In this document: in pieces, positions 36,366 through 49,810 of the stretch
Layout of the letters: every line of letters starts with the position of its first letter
Position numbering within the stretch: position 1 is the first letter of the stretch
Origin: a virus
Taxonomy: Duplodnaviria > Heunggongvirae > Uroviricota > Caudoviricetes
DNA: 64,000 nt
Reading direction: 5' to 3' (one strand)
IMG/VR virus record: IMGVR_UViG_3300012269_000002
Location: 82,407 to 146,406 of that record
Program-made: the position numbers and the translations under genes
The notes under the pieces: generated by a model
The model's database searches: none
What the model saw: only the letters and a program-made list of their open reading frames with translations
What the model was told of the DNA's origin: nothing

Positions 36366-37478
36366 ATGAGAGTTAAATTTAACTTACAGGTTCCAAAAGA
36401 CATTATAAAAATCAAGGATATATTTGTAAGCAATGGTTATAAACTATTTGTTGTCGGTGGTGCCGTTCGTGACTCATTACTTAAAAAGTCAATAAAAGAT
36501 TGGGATTTAGCTACCGATGCTAAACCAGATATAGTCGAGAATATGATGAAGACCGCTGGTCTTAGAACATTAGGGACTGGAAAAAGCTTTGGGGTCATAA
36601 ATGTATTCACCGATTCAGATGAATATGAAATCGCTACATTTAGGTCTGATTTAGGTTCGGATGGCCGCAGACCAAATTCTGTTGAATTCACGAATATTGA
36701 TACCGATGTTATGCGTAGGGATTTAACAATCAATGCATTATTTTATGATATCGAAACTGGTGAGGTTGTTGACCTTGTTGGCGGTATTGATGACTTGAAG
36801 AACCGAGTTGTTAGGACCGTTGGTTCAGCCAATGATAGATTCGGTGAAGATAGACTTAGAATACTTAGAGCAATTAGGTTCGCTGGTAGATTTAATTCAG
36901 ATTTGGATGCTGATGCTGAAAAATCACTCGCAAATGATGCCAGCTTAGAGGGAATATCATCTGAGAGGATTAGAGACGAGTTTTTAAAGGGTATTAAGAC
37001 CGCTAAATCGATTAAATACTTCCTAGGGCTACTAAATCAATACAATCTATTAGATTGGATATTTAAGGATATACAGAATGTTGATACTGACTTTCAAGAG
37101 GAAAGGGACCCAACTGTTCTATTGGCATACATGTTAAGAAATAATGACCCCAAACAATTGAACGGTAAGTTGAATAAATTGACGTACTCCATCAATGAGA
37201 TTAGGGGAATTGTTTTCTTAGTAAATCTAACAATGTTAAATGTTAACAATGTATATGAACTTAAGAAGATGCAGAATAATTCTGGTGTTAATGACGAACA
37301 GATTAGAAAATTCTCAAACTTAGTTGGTTTAAACACTGAATTATTTGAGTCATTTATAAAATTCGAATTATCAATTGGTGGTGCCGAGGTTCAAAAGTTA
37401 GGTATTGAAGCTGGTCCAGAAATGGGTAGAATGATTAAAAAATTAGAATTACAGAATTTTTTAAAGTATTTGAATTAA
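36366..37478 (+). CDS. cca: tRNA nucleotidyltransferase (CCA-adding enzyme), polymerase beta superfamily
   Basis: Head-domain motifs are FVVGGAVRDSLL, DWDLAT and RRDLTINALFYD. No tRNA gene in the window encodes CCA except tRNA-Ser(TGA). Confidence 0.75.
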   Translation: MRVKFNLQVPKDIIKIKDIFVSNGYKLFVVGGAVRDSLLKKSIKDWDLATDAKPDIVENMMKTAGLRTLGTGKSFGVINVFTDSDEYEIATFRSDLGSDGRRPNSVEFTNIDTDVMRRDLTINALFYDIETGEVVDLVGGIDDLKNRVVRTVGSANDRFGEDRLRILRAIRFAGRFNSDLDADAEKSLANDASLEGISSERIRDEFLKGIKTAKSIKYFLGLLNQYNLLDWIFKDIQNVDTDFQEERDPTVLLAYMLRNNDPKQLNGKLNKLTYSINEIRGIVFLVNLTMLNVNNVYELKKMQNNSGVNDEQIRKFSNLVGLNTELFESFIKFELSIGGAEVQKLGIEAGPEMGRMIKKLELQNFLKYLN

Positions 37479-37542
37479 AATATTGGGTAATAAGTTGTCT
37501 TAATACATTTTACCCAATATTTATTTCTTAAACACTAACAAT

Positions 37543-37737
37543 ATGGACAAAAAAATAGTTTGCAATAAATGTGGCTGGAATTGGAAGGAATCCGAAACGG
37601 AGGAACACGATAAGTATGTCTGCCATGAATGTGGTAATGATATGACAAGTATGTTAAGTGAAAATATTAGAGGTGTTATTAAAACATTATTAAATAATAT
37701 TTTAAAAATTAAACCCAATTATGAGAAAAAAAGATAA
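37543..37737 (+). CDS. small zinc-ribbon protein
   Basis: CNKCGW ... CHECGN, two CxxC pairs. Confidence 0.35.
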   Translation: MDKKIVCNKCGWNWKESETEEHDKYVCHECGNDMTSMLSENIRGVIKTLLNNILKIKPNYEKKR

Positions 37738-38437
37738 ATTAAAAAATATTCTAAAGGCCAATATTTTAACAGAGCAACGTTATCTAAATAATAAATCACC
37801 TCTCATTAATGAGAATAATGCTTTAGGTGAATATGATTATGGTAAGTTGGACCGTGATTATAGTGGTATGGGGCAAGATAGAAAAGATAAGTTAACCAAT
37901 TGGGGTAAAGAAAGGCAAATTGGTAACGGAATAATAGTCAAATCAAGGGATAATGATAGCGAACTATCGATTATGCCAAATGATATTGTATTTTACAACT
38001 ATCCTATTTATAAAGAGTACCAAAAAAAGATGGAAGCATATTCAAGGCAAAATGAACCCAATGATTACCCATTTTCAACGTTTTTAAAATCGAATCAAAT
38101 GCTACACTATTTTGATTTGAGTGCCAAGAATTCAGTTTTTATCAATATAGATAATAATCCGACAACGGATATTAAAATACACGTAACGGGTGAATTAAAA
38201 CCAATGAACGATAAAGATTTCCCACCATTATCATTTGATATTAAACATATTAACCTATCTAACGATAACGGTGATAGAAAACTATTACCAATAGATAGAA
38301 AAGGTACCAATATACTAACCAAAAAAATAAAAGAAGTGTTAATCAACAAATTTGGTAAGTACTCAATGCCAGGAAGAAATGAAGGTGATATATTCATTAA
38401 AGAGATAAATGTCCACCCAAATGTATTTTTATCTTAA
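37721..38437 (+). CDS. hypothetical protein
   Basis: ORF. Confidence 0.3.
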   Translation: MRKKDKLKNILKANILTEQRYLNNKSPLINENNALGEYDYGKLDRDYSGMGQDRKDKLTNWGKERQIGNGIIVKSRDNDSELSIMPNDIVFYNYPIYKEYQKKMEAYSRQNEPNDYPFSTFLKSNQMLHYFDLSAKNSVFINIDNNPTTDIKIHVTGELKPMNDKDFPPLSFDIKHINLSNDNGDRKLLPIDRKGTNILTKKIKEVLINKFGKYSMPGRNEGDIFIKEINVHPNVFLS

Positions 38438-38685
38438 AATAATTTGCAAAATACTTGCTTTATATAAAATAAGGTAGTATATTTGTAATCGAATAAGGAA
38501 TGACTTCAGCAATAAAAAAACTGAACTTTTGATTCAATCTAAGCCATTCTGAAAAATAAAGTAAATATTAAATATTATGATTGAAAAATAGATAAATACC
38601 AGAGGTCCATAGTATTCTCCATATACTAGAAAAATTAAATTAGCCGTAATGGCCTTATAATAATAAAATTTAAAATTAAAAAAAA

Positions 38686-47995: not shown

Positions 47996-48379
47996 ATGGA
48001 AAATAAAAGACACGAAGAGTTAAGTGATAAGATATTCAAAATGGGTTTTGGTCTACATGAAGAGGGTCAAGTTAGTGGTGATTACATTATAAATAGTATT
48101 GGTGATTTCATGATACTAATTAGTGGTTTAATTCACGACAAAGACGATGTAATGTTATTTGGTGAAATATGTGGTATGTTCTCCGCTAAAAAAATATTAG
48201 ATGCCCAGATGTCATTTAGTCACCTAGCTCCAAAGGATGAGGGTGAATTAAGCGAACTATTAAATCAACTTAAAAATAAGATTGATGAAAAAATGTCGGA
48301 AGAAGATAATGATGATGATGATGATGATGATGAAAATAATGATGATTTAGGTACTAATTTGGGTGATAAATTAAAATAA
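47996..48379 (+). CDS. hypothetical acidic protein ((GAT)8 poly-Asp tract)
   Basis: ORF with a gatgat... microsatellite at 48308-48331. Confidence 0.3.
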   Translation: MENKRHEELSDKIFKMGFGLHEEGQVSGDYIINSIGDFMILISGLIHDKDDVMLFGEICGMFSAKKILDAQMSFSHLAPKDEGELSELLNQLKNKIDEKMSEEDNDDDDDDDENNDDLGTNLGDKLK

Positions 48380-48384
48380 CAATT

Positions 48385-48624
48385 ATGAATTGGGTAAGTG
48401 TGTTAGATAAATTACCAGCAATGGATATTGAAGATGGTGATTTTAAAAGTAGTCAAAAAGTTATAGCATTTTTTAGAAATGGTTCCGAATACTGGTGTGA
48501 ATCCGTAACACTAAAACTTTACTATGAAGATGGTGAAGAACCAGAGTGGTATTTCGATTATGATGGTGAAAGGGTTATGGGTAATAAAATAACCCATTGG
48601 ACACCACTAATTCTACCAAATTAA
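48385..48624 (+). CDS. hypothetical protein
   Basis: ORF. Confidence 0.3.
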   Translation: MNWVSVLDKLPAMDIEDGDFKSSQKVIAFFRNGSEYWCESVTLKLYYEDGEEPEWYFDYDGERVMGNKITHWTPLILPN

Positions 48625-48679
48625 TTATTAATAAAAAATGGAAATTATTTAGGTAGTTTCCATTTTTTTCATTATCTTT

Positions 48680-49810
48680 GTGTTAAATAAAAAAATTATG
48701 TTAAAAATAGTAAAATATATTAGAAAATATGGGTTAGATAAAGCAATATCTGATTTTAAATTAATATGTAAAGACGATGGTGAGCGAATATTATTAAAAT
48801 ATAACCAAATCGAATCTAATATGGGGATTCCAGAAGTACAAGAATGTAGGGGTCTTATATTAGAGAAAAAAACATTAAGGGTTTTATGTTTACCCTTTTT
48901 TAAATTCTTCAACAGTGCTGAGGGTTATGCTGCCAAAATAGATTGGTCTACTGCGCATATATTGGAGAAGTTGGACGGCTCCTTAATAACATTATATTCA
49001 TATAATAATAAATGGTTTGCTGCCACAAGTGGTATGATACAAGGAGAAGGTGAAGTTAATAACAAGTTAGGTTCGACTTTTCACTCACTGTTCATGGATA
49101 TTATGGAAACTAAGTATAACTTTGATTTAAATACATTAAATAAAGATTATAACTTTGTTTTCGAATTAACAACACCTTATAATATAGTTGTGAAACCACA
49201 CGCTATATCTTCAATTACTCTATTAACTGTCAGAAATGTTAAAACCTTACAAGAAATATCATATGATGAGTTGATTCAATTGGGTCATTTGATTGGATTA
49301 CCAGTGGTTAAATCATATGATTTAAACGTTACTGATAGTGGTGCCTTAATTAGGACCCTAGAGGGTATGCCATGGACCGATGAGGGTTATGTTGTAGTTG
49401 ATGGCTACCATAATAGGATTAAAATTAAAAACCCAGCTTACCTGGCAGTTCACCATTTAAAATCAAAAACTGGTGAGCACAACATACTTGGGGTTGTTAA
49501 AACCAATGAGATAGATGAGTTCGGGGCAACATTTCCAGAAAGACTTGAAGAAATTAAAAAGCTAAAGGCTAATTATGATAAATTGATTAGTGACTTAAAT
49601 TCGACTTGGGAAGAAATTAAAACATCTTTACCAAAGAATATAACTAAACAAGAACAAAAGAAATTTGCAATGAAAGTTTTCGAGATTTCAAAGAAAATGG
49701 GTGTTGCTGAGTTTAGTGGATTATTTTTCTCCCTTAAGGATAAAAAGGTTGAATCAGTTAGTGAATTTATGTTTAATTACGACAATAAAAAACTTTATAA
49801 AATATTATAA
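48680..49810 (+). CDS. rnlA: RNA ligase 1 (T4 RnlA/gp63-like tRNA repair ligase)
   Basis: Several blocks match T4 Rnl1: ECRGLILE..PFFKFFN, the motif I lysine region ILEKLDGSLITLY, FVFELTTPYNIVV and EGYVVVDGYHNRIKIKNPAYLAVH. Confidence 0.75.
   Translation: MLNKKIMLKIVKYIRKYGLDKAISDFKLICKDDGERILLKYNQIESNMGIPEVQECRGLILEKKTLRVLCLPFFKFFNSAEGYAAKIDWSTAHILEKLDGSLITLYSYNNKWFAATSGMIQGEGEVNNKLGSTFHSLFMDIMETKYNFDLNTLNKDYNFVFELTTPYNIVVKPHAISSITLLTVRNVKTLQEISYDELIQLGHLIGLPVVKSYDLNVTDSGALIRTLEGMPWTDEGYVVVDGYHNRIKIKNPAYLAVHHLKSKTGEHNILGVVKTNEIDEFGATFPERLEEIKKLKANYDKLISDLNSTWEEIKTSLPKNITKQEQKKFAMKVFEISKKMGVAEFSGLFFSLKDKKVESVSEFMFNYDNKKLYKIL

Follow-up and report, generated by a model that had tools for sequence, protein, structure and literature searches.

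The genomes of jumbo phages carry a set of genes comprising tRNAs, RNA ligases of the Rnl1 and Rnl2 families, polynucleotide kinase, 2H phosphoesterase, CCA enzyme, peptidyl-tRNA hydrolase PTH2, and R2K, Nudix and SLOG proteins, which Iyer et al. 2021 (PMC7824862) read as countermeasures to host attack on tRNA and the ribosome. The gene content of the window, that is, the whole 64,000-nucleotide stretch of phage DNA analysed here, agrees with this set. As regards recoding, synthetic stop-hops by +5 and +6 are an established finding in E. coli (Weiss 1987, as cited in PMC5009743), and no natural case of a stop-hop was recorded in a 2016 review.

Functions were assigned from homology and structure prediction. 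Shine-Dalgarno motifs are nearly absent from the window (2 of 43 gene starts), which is consistent with the Bacteroidota-like host that the initial annotation had supposed. Taken as a whole, the explanation that we consider fairly probable is that the region represents a conserved operon-like cluster supplying, maturing and repairing tRNA in an uncultured AT-rich phage akin to jumbo-phage contigs, and that two of its enzymes, an Rnl2-like ligase and a kinase-cyclic phosphodiesterase (kinase-CPDase), depend on post-transcriptional rescue by protein splicing or recoding. The gene order CCA enzyme, tRNA array, kinase-CPDase, NUDIX, orf127 and Rnl1 is kept in related jumbo-phage contigs (IMG/VR, 137-362 kb), with synteny conserved at 11 related loci (tblastn). 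As judged from sequence comparison, the clustering of the repair and tRNA genes is not a matter of chance. The gene content listed earlier for this region proved real, but the tRNA count, the coordinates and the assumption of intact ORFs need correction: the listed items cover about 34 kb rather than '~25 kb', and the tmRNA and Rnl2-like ligase genes both exist but lie outside the interval 36366-49810 to which they had been assigned. Additional members of the cluster are genes for NUDIX, tRNA-binding, R2K ATP-grasp, ClpP and SLOG proteins and for HNH and GIY-YIG endonucleases. Selfish elements have colonised the cluster heavily.

The CCA-adding-type enzyme and the tRNA genes are located as follows:

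36366-37478 (+): class II tRNA nucleotidyltransferase, CCA-adding type (PF01743, 128 bits; PF12627)
39529-44273 (+): tRNA array (ARAGORN; Rfam tRNA model)
39529-39602 (+): tRNA-His GTG, canonical
39867-39936 (+): tRNA-Trp CCA, canonical
40501-40591 (+): tRNA-Ser TGA, canonical, the sole tRNA with an encoded CCA
40596-40671 (+): tRNA-Asn GTT, canonical
40770-40858 (+): tRNA-Ser GCT, canonical
42346-42421 (+): tRNA-Met CAT, canonical
42432-42505 (+): tRNA-Arg TCT, canonical
44200-44273 (+): tRNA-Arg ACG, canonical
39613-39684, 41138-41218, 43555-43647 and 43715-43789 (+): four cloverleafs with 6-nt anticodon loops
39714-39792, 40676-40759, 41792-41849 and 44117-44188 (+): sub-threshold tRNA-like elements
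40003-40488 (+): HNH endonuclease gene within the array (PF01844)
42551-43222 (+): GIY-YIG/NUMOD3 endonuclease gene within the array (PF07460, PF19835, PF01541)

The top NCBIfam model for the first of these products is CCA tRNA nucleotidyltransferase, with 196 bits (cutoff 290), so that the CCA-adding specificity proposed earlier is a predicted one; its gene also precedes the tRNA array in relatives. Standard thresholds gave 12 tRNA genes with ARAGORN and 13 with Rfam, eight of them canonical, and the 'at least 15' previously reported is reached only with relaxed thresholds (14-16). As had been noted, tRNA-Ser(TGA) is the only detected tRNA whose 3' end, read from the sequence, includes CCA. 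One third of the called tRNAs (n=4) have a 6-nt anticodon loop, and three of these four genes are also present in the independent assembly L021. The relatives have a restricted tRNA set in common, with two to four copies of Asn and frequent duplication of His, Ile, Met or Arg-TCT; homologues of the GIY-YIG/NUMOD3 gene occur in the tRNA region of two of them (L003 and L005).

Further genes are found upstream and downstream of the array:

25520-26233 (+): ClpP-type protease (PF00574, E 8e-55)
26233-26568 (+): YAcAr/YspA-type SLOG domain protein (PF10686, E 1e-10)
26627-26988 (+): tmRNA gene (ARAGORN; Rfam RF00023)
45095-45490 (+): peptidyl-tRNA hydrolase of the PTH2 (archaeo-eukaryotic) type (PF01981, E 7e-32)
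45490-45891 (+): NUDIX hydrolase (PF00293, E 1e-16)
45894-46250 (+): stand-alone tRNA-binding domain protein of the CsaA/Trbp111/MetRS C-terminal type (PF01588, 32.9 bits, cutoff 27)
46254-47033 (+): R2K-clade ATP-grasp peptide ligase (PF18299, E 3e-38; PF14243)
47996-48379 (+): orf127 (tblastn synteny)

The tmRNA-like gene was borne out by both programs (RF00023 58 bits, gathering score 47, E 4e-20); its acceptor stem is of the G3.U70 type, its tag is 26 residues long with VALA at the end, and CCA is not encoded. The ClpP-type gene lies directly upstream of the SLOG and tmRNA genes, and its product, scoring 231 bits with the NCBIfam ClpP model versus 69-73 bits with head-maturation models, resembles cellular ClpP more closely than a prohead protease. 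The assignment to PTH2 holds as well (TIGR00283, 100 bits, cutoff 82). The NCBIfam CsaA and MetRS-C models match the tRNA-binding protein with scores under their cutoffs. The NUDIX gene lies upstream of the kinase-CPDase gene here, but downstream of it in all relatives, where it precedes orf127 and Rnl1; orf127, which has no match in Pfam, NCBIfam or PHROG, separates the kinase-CPDase/NUDIX genes from Rnl1 in every relative.

The genes for tRNAs and translation could serve merely to boost the translation of an AT-rich phage genome where the tRNA pool of the host differs, with no role in counter-defence and with a CCA enzyme that simply matures CCA-less phage tRNAs. CCA is indeed absent from the tmRNA and from all phage tRNA genes but one, the window is rich in the codons Asn AAT/AAC, Ile ATA and Arg AGA, and a sigma factor and an FKBP isomerase are encoded there in addition to ClpP. 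We nevertheless regard this explanation as improbable, because the most used codons (AAA, GAA, GAT, TTA and GGT) have no phage tRNA, while tRNAs of low demand or for rare codons (Arg ACG, Trp and His) are kept across relatives and Asn is represented by two to four diverged copies; moreover, codon supply leaves no role for a healing kinase-CPDase and two RNA ligases. The two functions are compatible with each other. A counter-defence role of the cluster, a reading already published for jumbo phages (PMC7824862), is plausible from the gene content; the 'several host tRNA-targeting defences' suggested in the initial annotation would be putative.

The two RNA ligases are encoded by the following elements:

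48680-49810 (+): Rnl1-family RNA ligase, T4 gp63-like (PF09511, 49 bits; motif I KLDG)
58794-58958 (+): Rnl2-like N-extein ending with motif I (...TVKLHG), in ORF 58794-59243
58959-59240 (+): split-intein N half of 94 residues, fused to the N-extein (Intein_splicing and Hint Pfam matches)
59363-59464 (+): split-intein C half of 34 residues, ending in VLVHN, in ORF 59363-60340
59465-60340 (+): Rnl2-like C-extein starting with SNAG, fused to the intein C half

The gp63-like Rnl1 was recovered as described earlier: it matches PHROG 562 (E 7e-46) and TIGR02308 (78 bits, under the cutoff), and aligns with the T4 Rnl1 structure 2C5U (E 1.7e-15; 40-353 to 37-346 of 375) through the C-terminal domain. 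The Rnl2-like ligase is likewise present (58794-60340) but consists of two ORFs joined only via the split intein, which, as its sequence indicates, is of the gp41-1/NrdJ-1 type and cuts the catalytic motif. The joined intein halves match NrdJ-1 (8UBS, E 2e-11) and gp41-1 (6QAZ, E 4e-8). Only the spliced protein reaches 40 bits with PF09414 (cutoff 27); it is colinear with an uninterrupted homologue in L006, and its best matches are the T4 Rnl2 structures 2HVQ (E 4e-4) and 1S68. Trans-splicing of the motif I intein would be needed for assembly of this ligase.

T4 Pnk also acts on DNA. This activity, the adjacency of the Rnl2-like gene to that of an ATP-dependent DNA ligase, which relatives share, and the label 'RNA ligase and tail fiber protein attachment catalyst' given to the Rnl1 homologue's PHROG family would suit ligases and a kinase directed at DNA nicks, mRNA or tail-fibre attachment instead of tRNA. 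Such substrates are very unlikely, since the alignment of the Rnl1 homologue includes the domain that confers tRNA anticodon-loop specificity on T4 Rnl1 (PMC6379707), its gene is embedded among those of tRNAs, the CCA enzyme, PTH2 and the tRNA-binding protein, and 2H cyclic phosphodiesterases act on RNA 2',3'-cyclic ends.

The kinase-CPDase gene is interrupted within its Walker A motif:

47048-47155 (+): segment 1, 36 codons, MKNN...IIMRGVP, last codon Pro CCG
47119-47150 (+): hairpin CCCCUCUCA-N14-UGAGAGGGG with four extra pairs in the loop (folding)
47156-47161 (+): coding gap TAA CCA in the Walker A motif
47162-47995 (+): segment 2, 277 codons from GSGKST onward, rest of the P-loop kinase and 2H cyclic phosphodiesterase

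Eleven uninterrupted relatives have N-termini homologous to segment 1, and the joined protein matches AAA_33 (41 bits) only with the gap skipped. T4 Pnk (1LY1) aligns across the whole kinase domain (profile search, E 1.4e-3), and the 2H motifs HHMT (47714-47725) and HIT (47867-47875) are both invariant as HxT. The AlphaFold (AF2) model (pLDDT 91) gave fungal Trl1 KIN-CPD (6U05, E 9e-5) as top Foldseek match, followed by CNPase (E 4e-4). Both domains proposed earlier were therefore confirmed, together with an end-healing chemistry of the Trl1/CNPase type in place of a HAD phosphatase, but the gene is not an intact ORF, having an in-frame TAA at 47156-47158. A Tpt1/KptA 2'-phosphotransferase was not found among the window ORFs scanned.

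The gap is not an assembly error, since four more contigs of this phage, obtained from other samples, have the identical sequence. The same cassette was found in 41 metagenomic genes, 21 of them distinct. In all 41 the stop directly follows a Pro codon; TAA, TAG and TGA are all used, and a sense codon never is. The gap is 5, 6 or 9 nt long (in other genes TAACTA, TAACCT, TAGCTA, TAGCTT, TGACA, TAACA or TAAATATCA), and skipping it restores GVPG[SA]GKST in every case, the Walker A positions G, P, G, G, K and S being invariant across relatives. The hairpin ends 5 nt upstream of the stop codon and has a minimum free energy of -25.6 kcal/mol (z -4.0; none of 200 shuffles folds equally well). GC-rich and near-invariant, it is absent from intact relatives and present in 41/41 interrupted genes, most of which were retrieved by a pattern fixing the stem, and also in 8/8 genes retrieved without a nucleotide pattern, one having a C-to-U change under which the position still pairs, as G.U. 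Covariation is confined to one distal pair (AU n=13, GC n=5), and the 9-bp core stem has no variation of the kind that proves pairing. The hairpin is preserved at synonymous sites, and its arms consist of codons rare in the phage (CGC, 1.8% of Arg; CCG, 4% of Pro; CCC, 8% of Pro).

We tentatively interpret the gap, with a little less than even confidence, as a mobile, gene-60-like programmed 'stop-hop'. Ribosomes would pause at the Pro-stop of the kinase-CPDase mRNA, peptidyl-tRNA(Pro) would leave CCG while the mRNA slips forward by 5, 6 or 9 nt, and decoding would restart at GGU to yield the canonical GVPGSGKST; the upstream hairpin may re-form at the mRNA exit and so aid the slip. The landing triplets CCA, CCU, CUA, CUU, UCA and ACA should all be able to pair at two or three positions with a UGG Pro anticodon, and take-off and landing codons match perfectly in a minority of cassettes only.

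Other recoding, namely readthrough where the gap is 6 or 9 nt, frameshifting by -1 or +2 in the 5-nt class, or termination-reinitiation at the GTGA overlap in CCGTGACA, would produce a Walker A motif with extra residues or two polypeptides. Pro before and C after the stop make a poor termination context in E. coli; here Pro precedes the stop and C follows it in all 5- and 6-nt variants (40/41), the 9-nt variant having A instead. A GTG start, used by gene callers, overlaps the TGA stop in the 5-nt class. The succession of GAGGGG, 2 nt, P-site codon, stop and C also has the layout of the prfB +1 frameshift site, but a +1 shift yields no P-loop, and as the phage apparently makes no use of Shine-Dalgarno motifs, such a role of GAGGGG is doubtful. 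Separate mechanisms would be required for gap classes with a common hairpin and Pro-stop context: the 277-codon downstream ORF of the 5-nt class is in another frame, so readthrough is no explanation there, and no start codon follows the stop in the 6- and 9-nt classes. Furthermore, residues inserted between the invariant G, P and GK would distort an otherwise invariant motif, no UAA suppressor tRNA is among those detected by ARAGORN, and TAA is the normal stop in 51 of 56 genes. Recoding of these kinds thus has a slim chance of being correct.

The 5' part of the locus (endonuclease gene, N-terminus and cassette) is 92-94% identical between loci, while the 3' parts are saturated at synonymous sites, which indicates that the cassette spreads by recombination. 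The kinase gene could then be a casualty of a selfish homing-endonuclease cassette, whose insertion shields the DNA from the endonuclease and kills the kinase, leaving at most a protein made from an internal GTG at 47195, which would lack the P-loop but have an active 2H domain, or nothing. This is unlikely, although it deserves some weight. About half of the interrupted genes are directly preceded by a gene for a NUMOD3 and TnsA-like nuclease, which never lies beside intact ones, and the likeness of the cassettes, far above that of the gene bodies, points to recent spread. In L027 an L007-like gene and a window-like cassette form a mosaic, L032 and L062 are further disrupted, by a 1.2-kb insert with a duplication and by a split at the interdomain linker, respectively, and gene callers mark only the 266-aa downstream ORF. 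However, target-site immunity requires neither a stop codon nor a conserved hairpin, and every cassette keeps the stop after Pro and all but the one with the wobble-preserving change keep the exact hairpin. Identity among the endonuclease proteins is only 55-62%, hence their association with the cassette is old; despite this, none of the complete downstream ORFs has lost the frame or G[SA]GK[ST]. The dN/dS of downstream ORFs is 0.06-0.45. The window phage and several others also keep the cassette without the endonuclease gene in a tightly packed conserved operon. That downstream ORFs and P-loop codons are intact could be due in part to recent invasions of healthy genes instead of selection after insertion.

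In the proposed mechanism, the kinase-CPDase would heal cleaved ends to 3'-OH/2'-PO4 and 5'-PO4 for sealing by Rnl1, the CCA enzyme would build or restore 3' ends, PTH2 and tmRNA would clear stalled ribosomes, and phage tRNAs would replace lost host tRNAs. The presence of both ligase families, which the initial annotation had presented as a departure from T4, is a likeness, as T4 itself encodes Rnl1 and Rnl2. The kinase-CPDase has the same layout of 5'-kinase and 2H cyclic phosphodiesterase as fungal Trl1 KIN-CPD.

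The RNA-repair cluster lies in a stretch with a G+C content of 30.8%, in which nearly all genes are on the + strand. It comprises the following elements.

36366-37478, class II nucleotidyltransferase of the CCA-adding type (PF01743, 128 bits)
39529-44273, tRNA array
45095-45490, PTH2 peptidyl-tRNA hydrolase
47048-47995, kinase/2H phosphoesterase (kinase-CPDase) gene, with segment 1 at 47048-47155, a TAA CCA gap at 47156-47161 and segment 2 at 47162-47995
47996-48379, orf127
48680-49810, RNA ligase Rnl1
58794-60340, Rnl2-like RNA ligase, in two ORFs

All of the enzymes named in the initial annotation, which regarded the region as a module countering host tRNA-targeting defences, are present in the window. 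The hydrolase exceeds the equivalog cutoff of TIGR00283 (100 bits, cutoff 82), and PF01981 spans its full length. The proposed CCA-adding enzyme has a class II nucleotidyltransferase head, while its exact class is less secure: the CCA enzyme was the best NCBIfam model yet scored 196 bits against a cutoff of 290, followed by the PcnB poly(A) polymerase subfamily with 178 bits, and it is the genomic context that favours CCA addition. Missing from the gene list were three genes that lie between the tRNAs and the kinase, encoding a NUDIX hydrolase, a protein with a stand-alone tRNA-binding domain and an R2K ATP-grasp ligase, as well as HNH and GIY-YIG endonuclease genes within the tRNA array. Comparison of the window proteins with 20 related loci by tblastn revealed a recurring order, namely, CCA enzyme, tRNA array (with GIY-YIG/HNH), kinase-2H, NUDIX, orf127, Rnl1, orf86, and DNA ligase with Rnl2. 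Of the loci fetched for comparison, only L021, an independent assembly closely related to the window, has PTH2, R2K and the tRNA-binding protein at the position that they occupy in the window.

The phage family carrying the cluster is absent from cultured collections; megablast of positions 45000-50000 against 50,697 GenBank phage records gave no match, and the relatives are IMG/VR contigs of 137-362 kb and many metagenome assemblies, with contigs of up to 132 kb. The gene starts sit within A/T-rich leaders, and a Shine-Dalgarno-like motif was found at 2 of 43 starts, below the background of 10%. This near-absence fits the Bacteroidota-like host that had been guessed.

The kinase-CPDase gene is of more consequence than the module itself. 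In the gap-skipped protein of 313 residues the kinase domain matches AAA_33 (41 bits, cutoff 27), and a profile of eight homologues aligns residues 28-169 with residues 3-144 of T4 Pnk (E 1.4e-3), covering the entire N-terminal domain. The 2H domain is marginal by sequence (PF08302, Trl1 CPD, E 0.003, below the cutoff), but its two HxT motifs, HHMT and HIT, are invariant among 33 sequences. A profile search of the PDB returned P-loop matches only and no 2H match, so structure prediction was needed. The AlphaFold model, based on 33 homologues, has a pLDDT of 91, and its top Foldseek match is the fungal Trl1 KIN-CPD structure 6U05 (E 9e-5, 341 columns), followed by many CNPase catalytic domains (E 4e-4 to 1e-2) and a bacterial CPDase. 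The model thus supports the kinase/2H identity assigned initially and points to Trl1 KIN-CPD as the closest architecture. No HAD match, as expected of a DxDxT 3'-phosphatase, was found in the C-terminus by Pfam scan, and together with the 2H fold this upholds the claim of an end-healing chemistry different from that of HAD phosphatases. A CPD of the Trl1/CNPase type is expected to leave a 3'-OH and a 2'-phosphate; a Pfam scan of about 70 window ORFs revealed no Tpt1/KptA. In a tblastn search of the joined protein against the 50,697 GenBank phage records, only the kinase domain found matches (Gordonia, Pseudomonas and Ralstonia phages), none reaching the 2H domain. The two domains are separated in some relatives: in L032, L045 and L065 a 156-residue kinase is split from the 2H part by an insert of 1.2 kb that includes a partial duplication (L032 5365-7649), and in L062 (3297-4205) the interdomain linker contains a stop and then an ATG, so that kinase and CPDase are encoded by separate ORFs.

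Translation from the ATG at 47048 reads MKNN...IIMRGVP, then TAA, then PGSGKST. The stop (47156-47158) falls within the Walker A motif, and deletion of TAA CCA gives GVPGSGKST. Eleven related loci carry an intact motif, RG[IA]PG[SA]GKS; the DNA of the L007-type intact allele at this site is ATGCGTGGAATACCAGGTTCTGGTAAA. A sequencing or assembly error was dismissed, as four more contigs, from other samples, carry the identical sequence and diverged genes retain the feature. A recent private pseudogene was likewise discarded because the same interruption is present in homologues 56-89% identical, which were fetched by protein similarity alone. With the addition of pattern searches of IMG/VR and JGI metagenomes, the interrupted genes number 41, of which 21 are distinct. 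Their gaps are of 6 nt (TAACCA, TAACTA, TAACCT, TAGCTA and TAGCTT), 5 nt (TGACA and TAACA) or, once, 9 nt (TAAATATCA). Every gap starts with a stop codon directly after Val-Pro (GTN CCN), and TAA, TAG and TGA are all used. After the gap, decoding gives G[SA]GK[ST] throughout, except for a single GCGKS, and the joined product equals the protein of the uninterrupted homologues. No published report of this cassette was found in the literature searched.

Readthrough is excluded as an explanation for all classes: where the gap is 5 nt, the downstream ORF of 277 codons lies in another frame. A suppressor tRNA or a reassigned TAA was rejected on the same ground, and also because no tRNA with a UUA anticodon scored above threshold and TAA terminates 51 of 56 window genes. 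Recoding routes across the gap other than bypass are considered quite improbable.

The codon before the gap, at which take-off would occur, is CCG, CCA or CCT. The triplets preceding the resumed frame in the 41 genes are CTA/CTT (18), ACA (15), CCA/CCT (7) and TCA (1); all could form two or three pairs with a UGG anticodon, although most are not cognate.

A hairpin precedes the gap (47119-47150 in the window). Every interrupted gene contains CCCCTCTCA-N14-TGAGAGGGG, with its 3' end 5 nt before the stop, while in uninterrupted relatives the codons for this stretch of peptide are not complementary and the hairpin is absent. The window hairpin folds with -25.6 kcal/mol (z -4.0), and none of 200 shuffled sequences was as stable. 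Its arms are built of codons rare in the phage, namely, CGC (1.8% of Arg), CCC and CCG (8% and 4% of Pro) and GGG (12% of Gly). All six third-codon positions of the arms are invariant in seven sequences retrieved free of the search patterns, compared with 10% in the next 50 codons, and an eighth such sequence has a C-to-U change that preserves a G.U pair. The loop forms four further pairs, of which the distal one (19-25) covaries, being AU in 13 sequences and GC in 5. No covariation was found in the core 9-bp stem, most instances of which were chosen by a stem-fixing pattern; it was unobtainable because the arms are invariant, an invariance partly forced by the search patterns. A role as an intrinsic terminator is unlikely, as no U-run follows the hairpin. 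These features suggest a conserved mRNA structure with a putative stimulatory role.

The hairpin, the Pro codon and the stop-led gap behave as a unit, hereafter the cassette. A gene for a protein of 281-300 residues combining NUMOD3 motifs with a TnsA-like PD-(D/E)xK nuclease domain (for example, L082 5061-5909) is located directly 5' of about half of the interrupted genes with sufficient upstream sequence, and never beside intact kinase genes; the encoded proteins share only 55-62% identity. Loci of one cassette lineage are 92-94% identical at the nucleotide level in the N-terminal coding part, and their downstream gene bodies are saturated at synonymous sites (pS ~0.6). Locus L027 is a mosaic of an L007-like gene and a window-like cassette, and the window phage has the cassette and lacks the endonuclease gene. 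The cassette is mobile; its pattern of spread is the one reported for mobA and the bypass cassette of gene 60.

A mobile cassette might be purely selfish, in which case the gene would be dead or would yield the CPDase only, made from an internal GTG. The dN/dS of the downstream ORF is 0.06-0.45, and these low values were set aside as proof of selection after insertion because they are confounded by recombination at the cassette boundary. The same recombination also weakens the argument from intact downstream ORFs. However, neither a stop nor a conserved hairpin is needed for endonuclease immunity, the identity of the stop has changed twice, never to a sense codon, and the downstream frame and the P-loop have never decayed despite the age of the endonuclease family. 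Loss of the kinase to a selfish element, the main rival of bypass, is considered rather unlikely.

The mini-gap in the active-site motif is best explained by ribosomal bypass. Specifically, the cassette may be a natural, mobile, homing-endonuclease-associated stop-hop in which 5, 6 or 9 nt are bypassed to produce an active RNA-repair kinase, a tentative reading that we hold to be quite possible, though short of probable. Termination at the Pro-stop would be slow, and the peptidyl-tRNA(Pro) would unpair from CCG; the mRNA would then advance by 5, 6 or 9 nt, the tRNA would re-pair on the triplet preceding GGU (CCA, CCU, CUA, CUU, UCA or ACA), and decoding would restart. While CCG occupies the P site, the mRNA exit path would contain the hairpin's 3' arm, so that the hairpin, on re-forming, could draw the mRNA onwards by roughly the distance observed. 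Pairing of the mRNA on the exit side has been proposed as a driver of gene 60 bypass (bioRxiv 10.1101/2024.12.09.627546).

If ribosomes do hop here, gene callers will systematically truncate such genes; the window gene was annotated as a 266-residue protein without a P-loop. To our knowledge, natural programmed bypass is essentially limited to T4 gene 60 and its homologues, and to yeast mitochondria. Short natural hops have long been expected by the recoding field, with none recorded, including no natural in-frame stop-hop (2016 Atkins review, PMC5009743). The kinase gene would then be the first natural short-distance bypass of the stop-hop kind and a second, independent phage case of the gene 60/mobA principle, with a far simpler signal; it would also mean that selfish DNA can occupy an active-site motif without killing the gene. 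The signal is compact (~45 nt) and is represented by 21 distinct natural variants with three gap lengths and all three stops.

Both ligases expected in the module were recovered, one of them in an unexpected form. Rnl1 is, as proposed, similar to T4 gp63: it scores 49 bits against PF09511 (cutoff 28), has a KLDG motif, and aligns with T4 Rnl1 (2C5U) by phmmer over residues 40-353 to 37-346 of 375 (E 1.7e-15), including the C-terminal region, which in T4 Rnl1 is the source of specificity for the tRNA anticodon loop (PMC6379707). Its score against the equivalog TIGR02308 (78 bits, cutoff 242) indicates a divergent member. In relatives, Rnl1 genes are broken at or near motif I, with a 1.4-kb insert right after KLDG in L003 (14889-17395) and an Rnl1 fragment with an intein splicing domain in L083 (4353-4934). 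Mobile elements seem to have targeted the catalytic motifs of ligases repeatedly in these related phages.

The Rnl2-like ligase is present as claimed, but as two ORFs that can be joined only via a split intein.

58794-59243, ORF 1, 55 residues ending in motif I (TVKLHG), then a 94-residue intein N half and a stop
59363-60340, ORF 2, with its own ATG, in another frame and 120 nt later, a 34-residue intein C half (VLVHN) followed by SNAGVSY

The residues for splicing are present (C1, TEDH in block B, VHN and +1 Ser), and the fused intein halves match NrdJ-1 (8UBS, E 2e-11) and gp41-1 (6QAZ, E 4e-8). Tested with PF09414, a profile from motif I to motif V, the spliced exteins score 40.2 bits (cutoff 27; positions 5-170 of 171) and the C fragment alone 25.9 bits. 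The spliced protein, predicted to have 346 residues, also matches T4 Rnl2 (2HVQ, E 4e-4) and is colinear with an uninterrupted homologue in the related locus L006. The locus is therefore predicted to encode a naturally split intein in an Rnl2-like ligase, matured by trans-splicing. The presence of both ligase families had been considered a distinguishing mark; T4 itself carries both, so dual ligases do not set this phage apart.

The count of at least 15 tRNA genes proved too high. ARAGORN found 12 and Rfam 13, and 14-16 were reached only with relaxed thresholds, at which false positives begin to show elsewhere in the window. Eight tRNAs of the array are canonical (His, Trp, Ser-TGA, Asn, Ser-GCT, Met, Arg-TCT and Arg-ACG), and Ser-TGA alone encodes its CCA, as stated initially. 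The array also contains unusual elements.

39613-39684, cloverleaf with a 6-nt anticodon loop
41138-41218, cloverleaf with a 6-nt anticodon loop
43555-43647, cloverleaf with a 6-nt anticodon loop
43715-43789, cloverleaf with a 6-nt anticodon loop
39714-39792, sub-threshold tRNA-like element
40676-40759, sub-threshold tRNA-like element
41046-41134, sub-threshold tRNA-like element
41792-41849, sub-threshold tRNA-like element
44117-44188, sub-threshold tRNA-like element

The four cloverleafs score 41-47 bits in Rfam, and their loops read GACTAG, TTCGAT, AATCCC and TTCTTA. Three of them were found again in the independent assembly L021, and general indel errors do not account for the short loops because the coding genes are intact; convincing orthologues of the four were not found in the relatives. 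These tRNAs could be decoys for anticodon nucleases or decaying paralogues. An anticodon arm is missing from one tRNA-like element (Rfam tRNA, 42.8 bits), in which the acceptor, D and T arms are present. The element at 44117-44188 is an orthologue of the second CAT-anticodon tRNA of relatives and is possibly a tRNA-Ile2 for ATA. The set common to the relatives comprises His, Trp, Ser-TGA, Ile, Met, Asn, Arg-ACG, Arg-TCT and Ser-GCT, with Asn in two to four copies, diverged and up to four per genome, and His, Ile, Met and Arg-TCT often duplicated. Some paralogues carry inserted long extra arms; these class-II-like tRNA-His, -Ile and -Asn genes are 83-89 nt long (L003 6045-6133 and 6404-6488; L005 7020-7105; L007 497-579; L021 3044-3131 and 3556-3643). 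Such arms are abnormal for these isoacceptors in bacteria. The commonest window codons (AAA, GAA, GAT, TTA and GGT) have no matching phage tRNA, so plain codon supply is an incomplete explanation of the array.

The tmRNA-like gene (26627-26988) is a tmRNA by both Rfam (RF00023, 58 bits, gathering threshold 47, model positions 1-374) and ARAGORN, which recognised the tRNA domain, the G3.U70 pair and a tag ending in VALA; the gene encodes no CCA. The tag of 26 residues is unusually long and is not among the known tags listed by ARAGORN. The tmRNA directly follows a ClpP gene of the cellular type and a YAcAr SLOG gene, in that order (25520-28013 region). Other features of the window are listed below.

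615-1295, calcineurin-like (SbcD/Mre11-type) phosphoesterase
1356-2273, DUF7487/Vsr-like putative endonuclease
4728-6968, 746-residue ORF with a weak N-terminal match to an intein C-terminal splicing domain (E 3e-5, below cutoff)
7760-8590, sigma-70 family factor
19138-19575, second NUDIX hydrolase
20523-21977, DUF2828/DUF7788/vWA protein of 484 residues (PHROG 850 'RNA-binding protein', E 2e-149)
27555-28013, FKBP-type peptidyl-prolyl isomerase, 3' of the tmRNA
32601-33746, GP88 domain protein, sharing a 5' module with the next gene
33848-35356, adjacent gene with the same 5' module
50701-51909, 402-residue protein with a CoaB/DFP-like domain and a weak class II aldolase-like region (PHROG 35624)
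55212-57326, two tandem C5 cytosine DNA methyltransferase genes

The DUF2828 protein may correspond to a scaffold for RNA repair, Ro/TROVE-like and working with a tRNA-like RNA partner, that has been mentioned in connection with jumbo phages; searches bearing on this identity gave no sequence match in the PDB and no Y-RNA match in Rfam. The 746-residue ORF may be another intein or split gene. The genes at 32601-33746 and 33848-35356 share the same 20-nt leader (tatcgtatatagttacattt) and barely differ at their N-termini (M[DN]NKKYIVKLL), and their 5' module looks duplicated.

The cluster is genuine and conserved, and its kind is already known. The same gene set was reported in jumbo phages by Iyer, Anantharaman, Krishnan, Burroughs and Aravind (2021, PMC7824862), with the same counter-defence explanation, so that the functional reading given initially agrees with the published view and is reasonable, though not new. 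Shared with that set are the tRNAs, Rnl1/Rnl2, polynucleotide kinase, 2H phosphoesterase, CCA-adding enzyme, PTH2, R2K ATP-grasp, Nudix, YAcAr SLOG and ClpP. Unlike there, where fusion to a HAD phosphatase is typical, the kinase is fused here to a 2H domain; that paper mentions neither a tmRNA nor an interrupted kinase or split-intein ligase. The module is therefore a well-resolved, conserved example of the idea that large phages carry tRNAs and RNA repair against host attack on translation, with the twist that Trl1-like kinase-2H healing is paired with a T4-type Rnl1. New in the cluster are this healing chemistry, the split-intein RNA ligase, the abnormal tRNAs and, above all, the stop-containing mini-gap; what is said of mechanism is drawn from sequence.

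The T4 system, in which Pnkp and Rnl1 repair tRNA-Lys cleaved by PrrC, resembles the window in its Pnk-type P-loop kinase and in an Rnl1 that aligns through the region of the tRNA-specific C-domain. It differs in using a DxDxT phosphatase, whereas 3' healing here would proceed by a 2H CPDase leaving a 2'-phosphate, and the window kinase gene would require recoding. Fungal and plant Trl1/AtRNL (LIG-KIN-CPD) and vertebrate CNPase likewise combine a P-loop kinase and, C-terminal to it, a 2H CPDase within a single polypeptide, and the partner ligase of Trl1/AtRNL has an Rnl1-like adenylyltransferase domain (PMC6379707). However, the window ligase is a separate Rnl1-type protein in place of the fused Rnl6-type domain of Trl1, Tpt1/KptA was not seen in the window, and the sequence similarity to Trl1 CPD is marginal. 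As in the split inteins gp41-1 and NrdJ-1 from environmental phage sequences, the N (94 residues) and C (34 residues) halves are on separate ORFs; here it is an Rnl2-like RNA ligase that is interrupted, within motif I (KLHG|SNAG), and the ORFs are only 120 nt apart with no endonuclease gene between them.

The bypass of gene 60 and its mobA homing-endonuclease cassette (Huang 1988; Bonocora 2011; bioRxiv 10.1101/2022.08.31.505936) have in common with the kinase cassette a non-coding gap in an essential enzyme motif, a stop directly after the take-off codon, a conserved 5' stem-loop, linkage to a homing endonuclease, mosaic spread among related phages and retention of the cassette after endonuclease loss. 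In contrast, the gap is of 5-9 nt instead of 50, the putative take-off codon is Pro instead of Gly, candidate landing codons are often only partly matched, and there is no obvious take-off stem-loop that includes the take-off codon. The gene concerned encodes an RNA kinase and not a topoisomerase, and the endonuclease is NUMOD3 plus TnsA-like and not the HNH enzyme MobA. In the synthetic +5 and +6 stop-hops in Escherichia coli (Weiss, Dunn, Atkins and Gesteland 1987), as summarised in PMC5009743, 9 nt were decoded as one amino acid. The distances are the same, and in both cases the peptidyl-tRNA leaves, or would leave, its codon at a stop and re-pair downstream; those sites were engineered with matched codons and were of low efficiency, whereas the kinase site is natural, conserved and equipped with a dedicated hairpin.
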